Positions 26,689 through 46,712 of a stretch of 64,000 nucleotides of DNA are shown here, in pieces. The notes below the pieces were generated by a model that saw only the letters and a program-made list of their open reading frames with translations, was not told where the DNA came from and searched no databases. The position numbers and the translations under genes were made by a program. Within the stretch, counting starts at the first letter, position 1. The number at the start of each line of letters is the position of its first letter. The stretch lies in the NCBI GenBank assembly GCA_000165345.1, contig CM000430.1, positions 608,001 to 672,000 of the forward strand, written 5' to 3'.

Positions 26689-27864
26689 ATGATTAAGTAT
26701 AAAGCTATAGGCAAATATTTGATACTCCTCTGTTATGCTTTTAACATCTTTCTTAGTTTAGTTTTTTGCCAGGAGTTAACATCAATTCTCAATCCTGAAG
26801 GTGGGGGTGGGTTTTCATGTAATTATACTAATGCAGAATATACTTGCGGTGGATATTCTGTCACTCCCTGGAGTTCATGGGGAATCTGTTCTGGTTGTAA
26901 CGGAGTAATCACCAGACAAAGGTCAATTTCTGGAAGCGCTACGCAAGGAGGGCCAAGCACAACCGAACGTGTAAAATGCCTCAATAACCAATCATGCGAA
27001 CCATGCACTTATACTCAGTGGTCTTCATGGTCTGCATGCTCAGACACATGCGAATCTGGGACCAAATATAGAACTCGCAGAGTTAATTCAAATGTAGATT
27101 GTGGTGTTTCTGAAGGTGAACTTAAACTTATAGAAACTGTCAGCTGCAAAAACGACCCATGCAAGTGCGATGAAACAATTAGAGGAGAAAATGGACTGTA
27201 CTACAGAGGCTGCCAGAAATACTCTAGGTCTGGCCAAAAGTGCTTGAATTGGCTGTCTCTAAAATTCGATGCTTTTGATTATTTAGCCACTCTTGAAAAT
27301 TCGGGTATTGCCGACCACTCCTTTTGCAGAAATCCTATTTCTAACAATACTTTAGTTCCAACAATCTGGTGTTACGTAAGCGCATCTCCTCTAATTCCAC
27401 AACTCTGTGATCCTGTTCCAACTGATTGTGTAGTTTCAGAATGGGAGCAGTGGTCCTCTTGCTCTTCTACTTGCGAAGAAGGGAAGATTACCCGTACAAG
27501 AACTATTATCCAAGAATCACTTCATGGAGGAGTAGAGTGCCCAGTAGATTTGGAGCAGGTTCAGGATTGCTCAGTTGATGTTATTTGTCCAGTTGATTGC
27601 ATATTAGGATCCTGGAGTCATTGGTCATCATGTAGTGTAGAATGCGGTAAGGGGAATTCTACTCGGTCCAGAAGTATACTGACTCGTCCAAGGGGTACAG
27701 GAGCTGTTTGTCAGGAATATCTACAAACAAAGTCGTGCGAAGGAGAAGGCTGTATGAGTTTTTGGGAAAAGAATAAATACTCAATTATTGGTTTTGCAGC
27801 GTTGGGAGTCGTCCTAATTATATCTATTATTTATATTTTAATTCCAAGTAATAACAGTGTTTAG
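26689..27864 (+). CDS. Thrombospondin type-1 repeat adhesin with a kringle-like domain, type I membrane protein, 391 aa
   Basis: Signal peptide MIKYKAIGKYLILLCYAFNIFLSLVFCQ. Four TSP1 motifs are present (WSSWGICSG, WSSWSACSDTCESG, WEQWSSCSSTCEEG, WSHWSSCSVECGKG). A kringle-like module lies between them (NGLYYRGCQKYSRSGQKCLNWL...FCRNP). A C-terminal TM helix (IIGFAALGVVLIISIIYILI) is followed by a short tail. Confidence 0.8.
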   Translation: MIKYKAIGKYLILLCYAFNIFLSLVFCQELTSILNPEGGGGFSCNYTNAEYTCGGYSVTPWSSWGICSGCNGVITRQRSISGSATQGGPSTTERVKCLNNQSCEPCTYTQWSSWSACSDTCESGTKYRTRRVNSNVDCGVSEGELKLIETVSCKNDPCKCDETIRGENGLYYRGCQKYSRSGQKCLNWLSLKFDAFDYLATLENSGIADHSFCRNPISNNTLVPTIWCYVSASPLIPQLCDPVPTDCVVSEWEQWSSCSSTCEEGKITRTRTIIQESLHGGVECPVDLEQVQDCSVDVICPVDCILGSWSHWSSCSVECGKGNSTRSRSILTRPRGTGAVCQEYLQTKSCEGEGCMSFWEKNKYSIIGFAALGVVLIISIIYILIPSNNSV

Positions 27865-37545: not shown

Positions 37546-39324
37546 ATGAGGCACAGAAAAGAATACAAAGCTAGAGAGCTAAATTCTTTTGAAAATGAGC
37601 ATAGAAGAGAAGATTTAAAAGCAAATATTGAAGAAAGTAGACCAAAAAGTAGCCTATTAAGAATTATTTTGGACTACATAGGTCTGCTATTGTACTATTT
37701 TATAAATATTGCCAAATTAATTTTTCATTACATACTTAATCCAAGATTAAATACATTAAAGGAATTATACCCTCATCATACAGCTGGAAAATATGAACCA
37801 AGAAGTAAATTTGGGTACCGGTTCTTTTTAGTTTGCAATAGAGTGCAAAATATTGGTTTTGGATTTGAATATAGAGGAGTATATTATTTTAGTAATGCAC
37901 ATTTTAATGCAAATACAGATAAATTAAAGATTGATGGGAAGGAAATTAGGCTATACCAGCAAGGATTTACGATGTTATGTTCAAAAAAAGAGCATAATAT
38001 GAAAAAGCCAAGAGATGACGAAGATTTATATTTGTTGAATCCCTATATGCCAACAATTAAAGGAAAGTGTATTTACAAGAATCCCTTCTTTTATTCATTT
38101 TTCCCAATTAATTCTATTTGTAGGGAGTTTACAGGACTACCTATAACTAATAGTAAGGGGGAGCTGGTATCAATATACGATAATTTTAGAAAAGTGAATA
38201 GCTTGGTTTATAATATAATTGGGGACGTTAACTTATGGAAAGAAGAGCAAAGTAATACATGTACTGATTATAAGGTTGAAAGTGTTCAAACAGACCGCAA
38301 GGATATACAAGTTTTTAGGGTAATTTCTAAATTTGAGGATGGATGTGATAATTTTGAAAATAATGAAATTGTTGGATACTTTTTCAAATATAACTCAATT
38401 AATTACATTTCTGGAGCATTTGTTGATGAATTTGGGAATCTGAGTTTGCCAATAGCACTGGAAGATATTAATGAAGCTGAAAATACTTTAAAATATTCAA
38501 ATTTATACAGGGATTTATGGGTTTCAGTACCAAATTCTATGCATAATTTAAGTTTGCCAGACCAAGATGAATATGCTTTTGTATTAAATATTACTAGGAA
38601 CAACCAGAAAGAGATTAAGGGTAGGATAAAAATAGATATTAATCAGCAATTTTGGGCAGAGTTTGTGGGAGTTCCAAATAGAGAATTTTTAGGACTACCA
38701 ATATTAAATAGAAATGACCAATTAATAGGAGTATATAGTGATTTTAACATAGAAAATAGTTTTGGAAGACTCAAATATTCAGTTTATCTTGGAGGGATAA
38801 ATACATTTAAGAATTTTTTTTTAAGAATAAGTTTGAGAAATCAAAATACCATACAAACTCTTGAAACTGATTTTGATATGGAAATCCTTGAGCAAGTTGT
38901 TTCTCTTTGTTCTATGGGTACTGAAGATAATGATAAATCCTGCAATAAACTTGTAAATAGGGTTCTTTTTGGTGTTGGAAGTGAAGATATTTCTCAACAA
39001 ACTTATGAAAATCTTGAATTAATATTAAAAAAAAGATATCAAGATTCATCTTTGTACCCTGATAGCATTATTTCTGTTTCTAATAACCCAAATATTAGAT
39101 ACACTCAAGTACAAGATAAGAAGTTCATTATAGCAAATACTAACTGGATAGGGTATTCTTACCTTAATAGTGGCAACTTATTCCCATTTAATTCTTCTAA
39201 AAGTCTCCTAATCATATTATCTAACACTTCTACCGTATTAACTGAAGAGCTTCTTGAGAGTTATTATAAAAAAACTCATAAAACCAAACGTGGATTTTAT
39301 CTCAAGTTTATTTCAAATAAATAA
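37546..39324 (+). CDS. Hypothetical protein, 592 aa, probable type II membrane/secreted (N-terminal hydrophobic anchor)
   Basis: ATG at 37546. A hydrophobic segment (LLRIILDYIGLLLYYFINIAKLIF) lies near residues 35-60. No recognised catalytic motif. Confidence 0.5.
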   Translation: MRHRKEYKARELNSFENEHRREDLKANIEESRPKSSLLRIILDYIGLLLYYFINIAKLIFHYILNPRLNTLKELYPHHTAGKYEPRSKFGYRFFLVCNRVQNIGFGFEYRGVYYFSNAHFNANTDKLKIDGKEIRLYQQGFTMLCSKKEHNMKKPRDDEDLYLLNPYMPTIKGKCIYKNPFFYSFFPINSICREFTGLPITNSKGELVSIYDNFRKVNSLVYNIIGDVNLWKEEQSNTCTDYKVESVQTDRKDIQVFRVISKFEDGCDNFENNEIVGYFFKYNSINYISGAFVDEFGNLSLPIALEDINEAENTLKYSNLYRDLWVSVPNSMHNLSLPDQDEYAFVLNITRNNQKEIKGRIKIDINQQFWAEFVGVPNREFLGLPILNRNDQLIGVYSDFNIENSFGRLKYSVYLGGINTFKNFFLRISLRNQNTIQTLETDFDMEILEQVVSLCSMGTEDNDKSCNKLVNRVLFGVGSEDISQQTYENLELILKKRYQDSSLYPDSIISVSNNPNIRYTQVQDKKFIIANTNWIGYSYLNSGNLFPFNSSKSLLIILSNTSTVLTEELLESYYKKTHKTKRGFYLKFISNK

Positions 39325-39673: not shown

Positions 39674-40933
39674 TTATGCATTAGTATATAATATCATCAT
39701 ATTTAGGAAGATGATTAATAAGCTTTGTAAAATATGATAATTTGAGAATATTGGTAAAGAATTACTTTTTCTAAAATGTTTCTTGTAAAATCTTCTAAGT
39801 CCATGTTTAAGATCAAATGGTCCTCTATCAATAATTTCATAATCAATAATATCCAATCCATTTTCATTTTTGCATTCTTCTGGATTTAATAAACATTTAC
39901 AATCATTCGAATTAGGATTATATGTACAATGACAGCCAGGATTGAATGGATTAATATAACATCCACACAATTTTGAATATGGATTTAAATTACATGGGCA
40001 TCCAATACTATAAGGACTTGTTGAGCATCTTGGTATTATTGGAAGAGTAATATCATTAGTACAAGAAATAATAGTTTTACATTCATTAGTCATAGGATAT
40101 GTAATATTATATTGATTATTTTGTATATGATTATATATTGATTGATCATTATAACAGAAGCAATCAATTCCCATTGGATTAGTATAACATTTATATTCAT
40201 TATTATGTATACAATAAATTGGATTATTAATACACATGAATTTTATATTATTAGTAGTTTTTAAACTTGCTTGACAGAATGGATTATGTTCATTATTAAT
40301 GTTATCAATATTTCTTTTCCATAGAATAATTTTACCATATTTATTATTAAATTCATTTTCTATTAATGTAATTCTTTCAATATCATTATAAGTTGGATAA
40401 TCAATTAATATATTTTTGATTATTGATAAATCAAATATTATACCTTTTAATTTACCATTTGGTAAATTACATTTTTCATATCCACTAAATAATTTATTTG
40501 AATTTTCTGCATATATCTCATCAATTACAATATCTTGTATATGTATTCCTAATATATTGGAAATATGTTCTTTTAATGCCATTGTAATTTGTTTATAGTT
40601 ATCTTTTCTTTCTTCACAAAATGAAGATTCTAATAATGCTAATGTAATTGTTTGAATATGATTATGCTTTCCAATATCACTATCAGTATTTTCTTCTTTT
40701 TCCCGTCCTTTAGTAGTTGGTAATTTTGTATTATTATTGTTAATAGGAATTGAAGTGGAAGTTTTAGAAGTGAAGGATTTTCTAGTAGAGGTGGTGGTAG
40801 TAGAAGTTGTTGTTGTTGTTATAAGAATGGGTAATTTGAGTAATAATTTATCTTCTTTACTTGCAAAAAGTTGAGAATCATTACCATTACTCATTCCATC
40901 AAATTCTATATCATTATTTGGTATAGAGTTCAT
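39674..40933 (-). CDS. Cys-rich protein with a poly-Thr stalk and a novel C-x2-NP-x(3-5)-C repeat array, 419 aa, with a hydrophobic C-terminus
   Basis: ATG at 40933. The frame stays open a further 61 codons upstream, into the microsatellite, without any start codon. The protein has a TTTTTSTTTTST stalk and repeated motifs CINNPIYC, CYTNPMGIDC, CNLNPYSKLC, CYINPFNPGC, CTYNPNSNDC and CLLNPEEC. The C-terminal tail is hydrophobic (LQSLLIIFLNMMILY). Confidence 0.6.
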   Translation of the reverse strand: MNSIPNNDIEFDGMSNGNDSQLFASKEDKLLLKLPILITTTTTSTTTTSTRKSFTSKTSTSIPINNNNTKLPTTKGREKEENTDSDIGKHNHIQTITLALLESSFCEERKDNYKQITMALKEHISNILGIHIQDIVIDEIYAENSNKLFSGYEKCNLPNGKLKGIIFDLSIIKNILIDYPTYNDIERITLIENEFNNKYGKIILWKRNIDNINNEHNPFCQASLKTTNNIKFMCINNPIYCIHNNEYKCYTNPMGIDCFCYNDQSIYNHIQNNQYNITYPMTNECKTIISCTNDITLPIIPRCSTSPYSIGCPCNLNPYSKLCGCYINPFNPGCHCTYNPNSNDCKCLLNPEECKNENGLDIIDYEIIDRGPFDLKHGLRRFYKKHFRKSNSLPIFSNYHILQSLLIIFLNMMILYTNA

Positions 40934-41039
40934 TTTGAGTGTATTTGATAAATCATCAATATTGGGAGTATATGTTATGTTAACTGGAGGTATTTGTTGT
41001 TTTTGCTGTAGTAGTATTTGATTTTGTAGTATTAGTAGA

Positions 41040-41700
<661 letters not shown>

Positions 41701-41709
41701 AGTTTGGTT

Positions 41710-44043
<2,334 letters not shown>

Positions 44044-44735
44044 TTTCAAATTCTTCAATTTACATAAAAATATATATTTCTTCTTTTACTACTCTATTAT
44101 TTATCTTAATTTATATCATAAATCTTTAAAGTTAAGCTATTTTATACTATCTTAATTTATGATGAAGATTTTTTTTTAATATATATTTAAATAATTTCTA
44201 TTTCTCATATATTCAACTTTTTAATTTTTTTTTAATATAAATTTTTAATACTTTATTTTAAGTGACTGCCACTATTAAAAATACTACTACTATTATTACA
44301 TTTTTAGAGGTAATTTTTTTTATTTATTGTAATAAATATAATTTCATCATATTGTTTTATTTTTGCATGTATTATTTAAATTTACAAACTTTTGCCCGCT
44401 GACTTTATTTGCATGCATGCATTTTCGTCTCCAAATTTTTTTGTTCTTATTTAAAAAAAATGGTTTTGTGCATTAATGACTTTGTGGGTTGCGCGGCAAA
44501 TTTGAATATATTTTTTTCTATTGGTTGAATTAAAAAAAAGAATTTAATTAATAATAAATAATTTATTAATAGTTAAAGTGTGAGAAGTAGTGGAAGTATT
44601 ACTTTTATTATCTTTGATAATAATAAGAATATAAATTAAAAATATTGGTCTTTTTTTTTTTTTCTTTCCTATCCCTTTTACTTCCATTCAATTATACTCC
44701 TTACTCTTACCAGAAAAGCAAATAAAGAAGTTTAA

Positions 44736-46712
44736 ATGGACGATTTTAGCTTTTCCTTAAATAAATTAAGAAAAGAACAAGAAAAAGAAAGAAAAAAAGT
44801 ACTTGAAAAAAAACAAAGAGAAAAAAAATTTCAAGAAATCAACAAATTTAAAATTGATGATTACTTATCTAATATTGAAAGAACCTTTATTAAACAACAA
44901 AATAATATTTCAAATGAAGTGTATTTAGAACATAAAAACCCAAATAATCAAATTTTTCAAGAAGAAAATAAATACTCTTGGATACTTAAGCTAAATTTAA
45001 AAGATTATAATAATAATAATAATAATAATAATAGTAATAGTAATTCAAAATTTCCAAATAATGGTGAAACTGATCAAGTAATACTCCCAAATAACCTACT
45101 TAAAATATTAAGTAGTGATGAATCAATATATCCACTATATTTTAATATAAAATGTTTAAACCATCATATTTCTGAAAATATTAATCCAATTGAAACTCAT
45201 TGTGGAGTATTGGACTATTCCGAAGAACCAGGATACATTTCTTTACCGAATAAAGTTCTTAGATGTTTAAATATTAATCCAAATGATTCAGATTTTAAAA
45301 GTAATAAACCAATAATATGGATTCAAATTACATACAAAAAACTTTTAAAAGGATCTTTTGCTTCTTTTGAAATCTTAAATAATCAGGATATATTCAAAAT
45401 GCATGATATTGAATCTTTACTTGAAAGTTATTTAAGAAATCATTTTCTTACTTTGACAATTGGAGATACATTAATGATTAATCAACCAAATTATTCTAGT
45501 AATAACTATTGTATTTCTTTAATTAAAGTAAAACATTTAGAACCTGATAATTCGATTAGTTTAATCAATACTGATATTTCATTAGATATTACATATAAAG
45601 ATTCAAAGAATGAACAAACAATTCAAGATCATGCTGAAAATACCATTGAAAATTCAATCAGACTGATGAATATTGGTGATATTATTCATTTTGATGATAA
45701 ATTGGATGATTTAATTAATTTCAAATTAGATATACCATTTAATTTGAAAAAAGTCTTTCTAAATGAATCAGATACTGAAAATAATACAAAATTGAATATT
45801 TCAATCATTTCAAATCATTATTATGATATTTTTGTTTCATTTCCTCCCATTTTTGAAGCATCATCACATCTTCACATTTTCAGATCGTTTCCTGAAGACT
45901 ACTGCTACTACTCTAATTCTAACAACAATAATAAAAGCAAAAATACTAACCTGGTCATATCAAGTAACGAATTTATTAACTACTTAAAAACATTAGAAAG
46001 AAATATTTCTTGTAATCAAGACTCATCTTCATTGTTATTATTATTTCCCTCGATACTTTTTATTACCATCCAAAAACATAAAAATTCATCCTCAATTAAC
46101 AATGATATTATTTCAAATAATGAAAAATGCTCATTATCTTCTAGTATTCAAGTAAATATCCAATATTATAAAAAGGAAAGTACAATAGACGTAATCAATC
46201 AACCAATAGAAAACGAATTTTCAACTTGTATTAATTGTAAAAGAAAAATACCGAGTGATAATTTAGATCTACATTCTTTACAATGCGAAAAAATGTATAA
46301 AAGATGCAATCAATGCGATCTTATTTTAAAAAAGAGTGATTTTGAAAAACATACTCACTGTAATAAATGTATTAAATTTGGATTAAGCTTAGACCAAATT
46401 CAAATTCATGACAAATTATATCATCAATTTACTCAATGTAAACTTTGTAACCAAGATAATATTAAACCTATACAACTTACAATACATCAAACACAAGAAT
46501 GTCCAAAAAGGATAATACTTTGTAGGTATTGTAATAATTTTGTACAAGCCGGTACCGATGGACATTATGTTGATTATAAAGATAAGTATTATTATAACTT
46601 AACATCACACGAATCTTATTGTGGATCTAGAACAACAAATTGTAATATATGTAATAAAATTGTATTAATTAAAGAATTAAAATTTCATATTGATCTAGTA
46701 CATGCAAAATAA
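44736..46712 (+). CDS. UFD1-like N-domain protein fused to a C-terminal array of TRAF/C2HC-type zinc fingers, 658 aa
   Basis: ATG at 44736. Residues about 110-290 match the UFD1 double-psi barrel: THCGVLDYSEEPGYISLP (compare THCGVLEFxADEGxCYLP), LRNHFLTLTIGDTLMIN and ISLINTDISLDI. The C-terminal third has five or more Cys/His clusters (CINCKRK...HSLQC, CNQCD...HTHCNKC, CKLCNQ...ECPKR, CRYCN...). A poly-Asn insert is present. Confidence 0.65.
   Translation: MDDFSFSLNKLRKEQEKERKKVLEKKQREKKFQEINKFKIDDYLSNIERTFIKQQNNISNEVYLEHKNPNNQIFQEENKYSWILKLNLKDYNNNNNNNNSNSNSKFPNNGETDQVILPNNLLKILSSDESIYPLYFNIKCLNHHISENINPIETHCGVLDYSEEPGYISLPNKVLRCLNINPNDSDFKSNKPIIWIQITYKKLLKGSFASFEILNNQDIFKMHDIESLLESYLRNHFLTLTIGDTLMINQPNYSSNNYCISLIKVKHLEPDNSISLINTDISLDITYKDSKNEQTIQDHAENTIENSIRLMNIGDIIHFDDKLDDLINFKLDIPFNLKKVFLNESDTENNTKLNISIISNHYYDIFVSFPPIFEASSHLHIFRSFPEDYCYYSNSNNNNKSKNTNLVISSNEFINYLKTLERNISCNQDSSSLLLLFPSILFITIQKHKNSSSINNDIISNNEKCSLSSSIQVNIQYYKKESTIDVINQPIENEFSTCINCKRKIPSDNLDLHSLQCEKMYKRCNQCDLILKKSDFEKHTHCNKCIKFGLSLDQIQIHDKLYHQFTQCKLCNQDNIKPIQLTIHQTQECPKRIILCRYCNNFVQAGTDGHYVDYKDKYYYNLTSHESYCGSRTTNCNICNKIVLIKELKFHIDLVHAK

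Follow-up and report, generated by a model that had tools for sequence, protein, structure and literature searches.

We analysed a window of 64,000 nucleotides from the AT-rich (~30% GC) chromosome 2 of Cryptosporidium parvum (GCA_000165345.1, contig CM000430.1, forward-strand positions 608,001 to 672,000). Our focus was an open reading frame (ORF) of 419 residues at 39674-40933(-), which a sequence-only reading had singled out for a cysteine repeat array on a poly-Thr stalk. This ORF, cgd2_3130, is the 3' third of a single gene of ~1541 codons that the reference annotation divides into cgd2_3140 and cgd2_3130. The explanation that best fits our results, and that we consider probable, is that this one split gene encodes a female-stage or oocyst mucin, a candidate for glycosylphosphatidylinositol (GPI) anchoring, with a membrane-proximal module of 18 Cys.

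The 419-residue product is identical to C. parvum EAK88702.1/XP_626507.1/QOY42917.1/WRK31104.1, whose database label is 'hypothetical protein'. Published quantitative PCR (qPCR) primers (PMC3305300, suppl. 3) have one map site each, at 40153-40174(-), inside the 18-Cys module, for cgd2_3130 and at 42726-42747(-) for cgd2_3140. Their positions therefore identify the ORF at 39674-40933(-) as cgd2_3130 and the 782-residue upstream ORF at 41710-44058(-) as cgd2_3140. The neighbours fit chromosome 2: UFD1 (44736-46712), a TBC RabGAP, a kinase, and glucose-6-phosphate isomerase, which is cgd2_3200. Full-text searches by accession numbers and gene ids found no paper discussing cgd2_3130.

A single reading frame across an ACT microsatellite

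The two ORFs of the window are separated by an ACT microsatellite of ~780 bp, in which the Thr-coding frame drifts through all three frames. The long-read assembly of C. parvum ATCC (CP044421, L001) instead has a single frame of 1541 codons from signal peptide to stop: MIINKKISVFLLLIIIVIFSFN is followed by ~400 residues of T(n)KP repeats, then by ...NITYTPNIDDLSNTLK-MNSIPNN... and the stop codon. At the microsatellite, the frame of this assembly stays open for 1136 codons. Compared to ATCC, the microsatellite in the window is shorter and frame-shifted, with a false stop at 41710-41712 and a TAA at ~40981; an extra nucleotide at 40984 yields the TAA that divides the Thr frame from the ORF. At its end, the 782-residue ORF reads the Thr repeat out of frame for ~45 residues (…PNKKTTTTYYLLTQPTSSFFKNKPLLLTSTEGVVLSTTYLLSF, then stop). 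Collapsed repeats and frameshift artefacts of such a kind have been described for the 2004 reference (PMC8744675).

Over ~13 kb, the window and ATCC show ~200 differences, all within 40983-41933, and the ~12 kb of flanking sequence is identical. Because the differences are confined to the microsatellite, with none in the flanks, a strain-specific pseudogene is unlikely. An intron joining the two ORFs was rejected as unneeded, since the ATCC frame is continuous, and the poly-Val ORFs on the plus strand (41059-41271 and 41819-42349) are the ACT microsatellite read backwards.

Other species carry the gene in one piece. C. canis (1392 residues) and C. ryanae (874 residues) each have one unbroken ORF in the syntenic slot adjoining UFD1. 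The C. canis protein (P0008) matches cgd2_3140 over its residues 39-592 (40% identity, E 4e-75) and the cgd2_3130 ORF over its C-terminal 320 residues. Both C. hominis assemblies have >300 in-frame poly-Thr codons upstream, with the contig ending inside the repeat, and poly-Thr is likewise in frame upstream of the annotated start in C. tyzzeri and C. serpentis. Where cgd2_3130 is annotated to start, at 40931-40933, C. meleagridis has Ile in place of Met. The sequence-only reading had noted that there is no signal peptide at the annotated ATG and that the frame stays open for 61 codons upstream of it, and had suspected that the true 5' end differs. All of this was confirmed; the signal peptide sits in the upstream ORF.

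The chromosome-level hybrid assembly of C. meleagridis (L006, CM077708.1, 5176-6001) loses the Thr frame ~75 codons upstream of the annotated start and from there reads PAATDNDSYCNDNDCCCHC...; the gene is split in this assembly into products of 820 and 413 residues.

Architecture of the intact protein

The features of the reconstructed gene, all on the minus strand of the window, are as follows.

43978-44043 (-): true start codon and signal peptide (MIINKKISVFLLLIIIVIFSFN), inside the cgd2_3140 ORF; ATCC uses the same start
41934-43977 (-): N-terminal mucin-like region, Cys-free and rich in Ser/Thr/Asn (cgd2_3140 proper), in which there are short Thr and Asn microsatellites
40983-41933 (-): ACT microsatellite encoding the T(n)-K-P poly-Thr stalk, frame-shifted in the window
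40661-40982 (-): linker with short Thr runs, in which the annotated cgd2_3130 'start' Met is an internal residue
40292-40660 (-): predicted alpha/beta domain spanning ORF residues 92-214, whose Cys 106 and 155 are both conserved
39866-40291 (-): 18-Cys module, ORF residues 215-356, made up of a C220-C260 block, a variable loop and a C285-C354 block
39872-40027 (-): periodic core CSTSPYSIG-CPCNLNPYSKL-CGCYINPFNPG-CHCTYNPNSND-CKCLLNPEEC, with an 11-residue period
39767-39865 (-): juxtamembrane linker, acidic then basic (ENGLDIIDYEIIDRGPFDLKHGLRRFYKKHFRK), conserved from C. parvum to C. ryanae
39674-39766 (-): candidate GPI-attachment signal (hydropathy) and stop codon, with a layout common to the orthologs and to the paralogs P0010 and P0012

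By ATCC numbering, the signal peptide occupies residues 1-22, the Cys-free Ser/Thr/Asn-rich region 23-700, the stalk 701-1100, the linker 1101-1213, the alpha/beta domain, with one Cys pair, 1214-1336, the 18-Cys module 1337-1478, and the charged linker and hydrophobic tail 1479-1541. The final 265 residues of the 1541-residue protein hold all of its 20 Cys. The C. canis and C. ryanae orthologs likewise open with a hydrophobic, signal-like segment. The poly-Thr stalk (TTTTTSTTTTST run) reported earlier is real and far longer than could be seen from the window: its 400-residue segment is 68% Thr, and there are more Thr runs elsewhere in the protein.

An RGPF motif occurs at full-length residues 586 and 1492 (~42300 and ~39830, minus strand) in similar context, ALIETRGPFIIINEE and EIIDRGPFDLKHG, and is kept at both places in C. 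canis. This recurrence could be a processing or sorting site, or chance.

The cysteine array and its conservation

The ORF contains 20 Cys, at residues 106, 155, 220, 234, 241, 249, 258, 260, 285, 291, 303, 312, 314, 323, 325, 334, 336, 345, 347 and 354. The spacings within the module are 13, 6, 7, 8, 1, 24, 5, 11, 8, 1, 8, 1, 8, 1, 8, 1 and 6. All six units quoted by the sequence-only reading were found: CINNPIYC (234), CYTNPMGIDC (249), CNLNPYSKLC (314), CYINPFNPGC (325), CTYNPNSNDC (336) and CLLNPEEC (347), and so were the five CxC pairs that it listed. The spacing after NP, which it gave as 3-5 residues, counts as 2-4, and the units are not all consecutive, as two lie in the first block and four in the last. 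There is also a seventh, degenerate unit that it did not report, CSTSPYSIGC (303). The last block has an exact 11-residue period, C-x-C-x2-N-P-x4, in four units, and this holds over the last 52 residues of the Cys-rich stretch. When residues 215-360 were shuffled 100,000 times, no shuffle reached six units and the maximum was three.

The cysteines are well conserved. All 20 are kept in C. serpentis despite 39-41% identity, and all 18 in the module are in register in the orthologs and in the distant C. bovis/C. xiaoi paralog P0010, whose repeat units retain Pro more often than Asn. Compared to C. meleagridis, the ratio of non-synonymous to synonymous substitution rates (dN/dS) is 0.022 for the module, which has 2 non-synonymous changes against 17 synonymous ones; it is 0.062 for the alpha/beta domain ahead of the module and 0.13-0.31 for the linker at 40661-40982. 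The shuffles, the conservation of the cysteines and the low dN/dS therefore show that the array is a protein domain under strong purifying selection and not a low-complexity accident. The sequence-only reading had allowed that the ORF might be untranscribed or a low-complexity artefact; purifying selection, together with the RNA and proteomic data given below, refutes this.

Domain identity and the EGF-like alternative

No Pfam family matched the window protein, the full-length protein or its relatives (8-12 family members) at E<=10. Searches of PDB sequences with two profiles gave only noise (phosphoglucomutase, E 6.3; enoyl-CoA hydratase, E 0.96). When 1.84 billion representative proteins were searched with a HMMER profile, five came back, all of Cryptosporidium type: the orthologs of C. 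canis, C. ryanae and C. serpentis, P0010 from C. bovis/C. xiaoi, and an 837-bp metagenome fragment. EGF, TSP1, Apple, COWP and granulin proteins were absent from these exhaustive results. Thus the earlier statement that the array matches none of EGF, TSP1, Apple/PAN, COWP or granulin is upheld by Pfam, by the PDB profiles and by the exhaustive search, and the reservation that it could turn out to be a known domain once searched was not borne out, as profile searches of Pfam, PDB sequences and 1.84 billion proteins gave no described domain.

The sequence-only reading had proposed structure prediction for the array. AlphaFold2 gave an unusable model from a 3-sequence alignment (predicted local distance difference test score, pLDDT, 37). 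With 8 sequences, moderate confidence was reached only for the alpha/beta domain (pLDDT 65-85) and the terminal helix, and the periodic Cys array scored ~26. The predicted topology of the alpha/beta domain is beta-alpha-beta-beta-alpha-beta, and Foldseek against the PDB gave no significant match. Given these null results and this topology, we call the first domain ferredoxin-like on the basis of the model, and possibly SEA-like, and we regard the 18-Cys module, judged from its sequence profile, as unclassified and matching no described protein domain. On the fold evidence, SEA cannot be told apart from other folds of the ferredoxin-like kind. The SEA domain profile (PF01390) matched neither the window protein, the full-length protein nor 8 relatives, and the G/SVVV-type autoproteolysis site that many, though not all, SEA domains have between strands 2 and 3 was not found; the sequence there is NGKLKG-IIFDL, with no Ser/Thr/Cys nucleophile after the Gly.

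The module could instead be a highly diverged EGF-like or laminin-type array, which would give the protein the SEA, EGF and anchor layout of metazoan-style mucins. Its first block is spaced C-x6-C-x7/8-C-x8-C-x-C-x(7-24)-C, an EGF-like pattern that is clearest in P0010; C-x-C-x8-C resembles the C4-x-C5...C6 part of EGF; and the module follows a ferredoxin-like, possibly SEA-like, domain. However, the EGF-like spacing of C234-C285 is not accompanied by a profile match. EGF, laminin-EGF, furin-like, TNFR and other Cys-rich Pfam models match 0 of the 8-12 members at E<=10, the domain profile matches no PDB chain, and the exhaustive search brought back no EGF proteins. Moreover, the 11-residue array with its conserved N-P is without counterpart in the EGF consensus, and the Cys number does not divide into 6-Cys units. 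We consider a diverged EGF array unlikely, and it is the only one of the alternatives discussed here that is still seriously open.

The candidate C-terminal anchor signal

In the C-terminal tail, S-N-S supplies small residues that may hold the omega site; LPIFSNYH follows as a spacer of ~8 residues, and then comes the hydrophobic ILQSLLIIFLNMMILY. By hydropathy the hydrophobic stretch is 16-19 residues long and finishes 3 residues before the stop. The S-N-S region is kept as S/N/G in orthologs and paralogs. The sequence-only reading had called the tail compatible with a GPI signal, and by inspection it has the anatomy of a putative GPI-attachment signal, a layout that we judged by eye rather than with a trained predictor. 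The N-terminal signal peptide that goes with such a signal is present only in the reconstructed full gene (MIINKKISVFLLLIIIVIFSFN) and is absent at the annotated ATG; the GPI reading of the tail makes sense only because the upstream signal peptide belongs to the same gene.

A stretch of 16-19 hydrophobic residues could also cross the membrane, and the GPI signal was judged by eye, so we weighed a permanent transmembrane or tail anchor as well. Since only 3 residues lie beyond the hydrophobic stretch, such an anchor would have no cytoplasmic tail. It also does not account for the conserved small residues (S-N-S; S/N/G in relatives) 8-9 residues upstream, and the full gene carries a signal peptide at its N-terminal end. 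We find a permanent anchor improbable compared to a GPI signal.

Late, female-linked expression

Published RNA sequencing places cgd2_3130 and cgd2_3140 in the same cluster (PMC6877471 suppl. 5, BulkCluster5). The log2 counts per million (log2CPM) of cgd2_3130 go from 2.4/-2.2/2.6 (sporozoites) and -0.8/0.0/-0.8 (24 h) to 7.2/6.8/6.7 (48 h), and those of cgd2_3140 are 1.1/1.1/1.2, 0.2/0.9/-1.5 and 8.2/8.0/8.0, respectively (PMC6877471). For cgd2_3140, sorted females average 7.0 in vitro and 7.9 in vivo, against 1.3 for asexual stages; the log fold change (logFC) is 5.69, an enrichment of ~50-fold (PMC6877471 suppl. 4). By qPCR, both halves are near zero to 36 h and ~100-fold higher at 48-72 h (PMC3305300). 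Cultures turn sexual at 48 h, and oocyst-wall components are made by female gametes (PMC6877471). At the protein level, cgd2_3130 was quantified by tandem mass tag (TMT) proteomics of excysted oocysts (PMC12548878 S7). Both halves are therefore transcribed late, from 48 h; expression is female-linked for the upstream half, and the C-terminal half is present in oocyst material.

These data bear on a reading of the protein as a mucin for invasion or adhesion by sporozoites or merozoites, of the gp900 or gp40/15 kind, and not as a female-stage or oocyst protein. Its architecture is like that of known zoite mucins, and the excysted oocyst material in which it was found holds sporozoites. Nevertheless, neither sporozoites nor 24-h asexual cultures show transcripts above background, transcripts appear at 48-72 h only, and the upstream half is enriched in sorted females over asexual stages by the logFC given above. 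A role as a zoite mucin thus seems quite improbable.

Weighing the reconstruction

Several points weigh against our reading of one split gene for an anchored female-stage or oocyst mucin. Female enrichment is directly seen for cgd2_3140 only, and the oocyst sample, which includes sporozoites, does not place the protein within the oocyst. The 419-residue product is kept in three C. parvum annotations, two of them on long-read assemblies. At a pLDDT of ~26 over the Cys array, the model is too unreliable to show a fold or disulfide pattern for the module. Finally, GPI anchoring was judged by inspection alone, and the functional role is deduced from architecture and timing.

The annotations bear most directly on whether cgd2_3130 is a stand-alone gene of 419 codons starting from the ATG at 40933, separate from an upstream mucin gene. 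That exactly this product recurs in the three annotations, and that stops lie between the two ORFs in the window, would fit a separate gene. Such a gene, however, would be without a signal peptide yet would encode 20 conserved Cys and a terminal hydrophobic signal, and its ATG is not conserved, being Ile in C. meleagridis. In five other assemblies or species the upstream frame is open; a single ORF is found in C. canis and C. ryanae; the differences from ATCC are limited to the microsatellite; and the two halves have identical expression profiles. Together these observations leave a separate gene very improbable.

A reading of the CxC motifs as an intracellular metal-binding 'CXC' domain, prompted by the many CxC pairs and by the source name of C. 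canis P0008 ('transcriptional repressor EZH1 domain-containing protein'), is already effectively refuted, as no pre-SET/CXC or other Pfam family is found in P0008 or its relatives, and the signal peptide, mucin stalk and terminal anchor signal of the full protein make the Cys module extracellular and oxidised. The EZH1 name of P0008 (KAJ1610821.1; L011 3001-7179) is probably an automatic label set off by the CxC motifs, because Pfam finds no such domain.

Paralogs and distant relatives

Two proteins encoded at another locus share the C-terminal layout of cgd2_3130. P0010 (194 residues, C. bovis/C. xiaoi) and P0012 (278 residues) both have the alpha/beta domain, the 18-Cys module and the hydrophobic tail. 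P0012 was the only addition from word-index protein searches, and these searches found no C. parvum copy of the P0010-type paralog.

The paralog gene is present in C. xiaoi (L004 4142-6585), in C. bovis (L005) and in L010, and is annotated as two genes of 552 and 194 residues. In C. xiaoi, where the gene model is truncated, the break appears to be an intron that the annotation missed, ~150-200 nt long and with the donor GTAAGT following ...RFTF. The GC-richer relative in L010 (48% GC) reads straight through (RFTFIIDTNKESSYLYK). The upstream part of the paralog contains additional Cys as well as an (HHP)n repeat. The 837-bp metagenome fragment (ENA ERZ809599 contig, L009) encodes P0011, in which the 18-Cys module is present as a diverged copy (E 6e-4 with the first profile); the GC content of the fragment, 48%, is far above that of C. 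parvum. OrthoMCL group OG5_129869 pairs cgd2_3140 with cgd5_420 (PMC6877471 supplementary file 6), a pairing that may be a low-complexity artefact or may indicate a second related C. parvum mucin.

Neighbouring genes

The UFD1 homolog at 44736-46712(+) has a C-terminal TRAFD1/XAF1-type zinc finger, and the same fusion is present at the C. tyzzeri, C. meleagridis, C. canis and C. ryanae loci. At 37546-39324(+) lies a gene for a 592-residue protein, by position cgd2_3120, with no Pfam or PDB relative. It contains two like motifs, GLPITNSKGELVSIYD and GLPILNRNDQLIGVYSD, which suggests internal duplication, and it also appears in the oocyst TMT proteome table. Farther away, the ORF at 26689-27864(+) encodes three thrombospondin type-1 repeats and a Kringle domain and is a member of the Cryptosporidium TSP adhesin family.

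Proposed role and significance

If our reading of a single GPI-anchored mucin of the female stage or oocyst is correct, the protein would enter the secretory pathway in macrogamonts and its C-terminal tail would be swapped for a GPI anchor. The 20 Cys may pair as 10 disulfides, stiffening a membrane-proximal pedestal. The Thr stalk would be densely glycosylated with O-linked N-acetylgalactosamine (O-GalNAc), holding the N-terminal region off the membrane; dense O-GalNAc is documented on the Thr tracts of other C. parvum mucins (PMC5549699). On the female gamete, zygote or oocyst it would then serve as a mucin of the surface or one associated with the oocyst wall, perhaps forming a coat or tethering the parasite membrane to the inner wall.

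One may go further and propose that the module, through its four C-x-C-x2-N-P-x4 units, adopts a disulfide-rich fold not known before, such as a disulfide-laddered rod, and that it belongs to a genus-specific 'anchor cassette' of alpha/beta domain, 18-Cys module and GPI signal. On this proposal, the cassette would be used by at least two Cryptosporidium gene lineages, cgd2_3140/3130 and C. bovis/xiaoi P0010/P0012, and in C. parvum would mount a giant mucin on the female gamete, the zygote or the inner oocyst wall. It could then act in fertilisation, or help to assemble the wall and tether sporozoites, and offer a transmission-stage target. We offer this combination tentatively, as possible but doubtful.

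The evidence points to two 'uncharacterized proteins' of a major diarrhoeal pathogen being one secreted, anchored mucin of 1541 residues. Under the split model, work that filters on signal peptide, GPI signal or size passes this protein over, as in ortholog counts, proteomic databases, secretome lists and catalogues of vaccine candidates. Only a few molecules are known from the surface of the female gamete or from where oocyst wall and sporozoite meet, and this is a sexual-stage gene with an oocyst product; a mucin with a Cys-rich base is therefore a concrete candidate for tagging or knockout. Besides correcting a gene model and proposing a candidate transmission-stage surface molecule, our analysis brings out in the 18-Cys module a strongly constrained domain without family assignment or structure.

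Comparison with known systems

Among C. parvum mucins, GP900 (cgd7_4020) is similar in being secreted and in combining O-glycosylated poly-Thr domains of great length with non-mucin domains that contain Cys and with a membrane segment at the C-terminus (PMC9111948, PMC5549699). Unlike cgd2_3140/3130, with its candidate terminal GPI-type signal and its female-stage expression at 48 h, GP900 is a type-I transmembrane, micronemal protein of zoites. It was not retrieved by the exhaustive profile search, and no sequence similarity to cgd2_3140/3130 was detected. GP60 (gp40/15, cgd6_1080) shares the order of signal peptide, Ser/Thr mucin tract and C-terminal GPI signal (PMC5549699), but is small, zoite-expressed and without a Cys-rich module or alpha/beta domain, and there is no homology.

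The metazoan SEA mucins MUC1, MUC13 and MUC16 differ in that our protein has no SEA or EGF model match and no G/SVVV motif, and in that they are transmembrane where the anchor here appears to be of GPI type. Any resemblance reflects at most convergence or very remote homology. The Plasmodium zygote/ookinete surface proteins P25 and P28 are Cys-rich (EGF-like) and GPI-anchored, and their expression begins in the female gamete. What we propose for cgd2_3140/3130 in timing and membrane attachment is analogous, whereas P25 and P28 are small, have recognisable EGF arrays and no mucin stalk, and show no detectable similarity.

The oocyst wall proteins COWP1-9 are likewise female-stage and secreted, and their Cys content is very high, at one per 10-12 residues (PMC12548878), a density similar to that of the 11-residue period described here. 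However, they have other repeat types and are without a membrane anchor or mucin stalk, and the profile search retrieved no COWP from the 1.84 billion proteins. Like the Cryptosporidium mucin-like glycoproteins, cgd2_3140/3130 combines a signal peptide for secretion with long Ser/Thr tracts. Its kind is already known, that of the apicomplexan membrane-anchored mucin-like glycoproteins; what is new is the genus-restricted, unclassified 18-Cys module.

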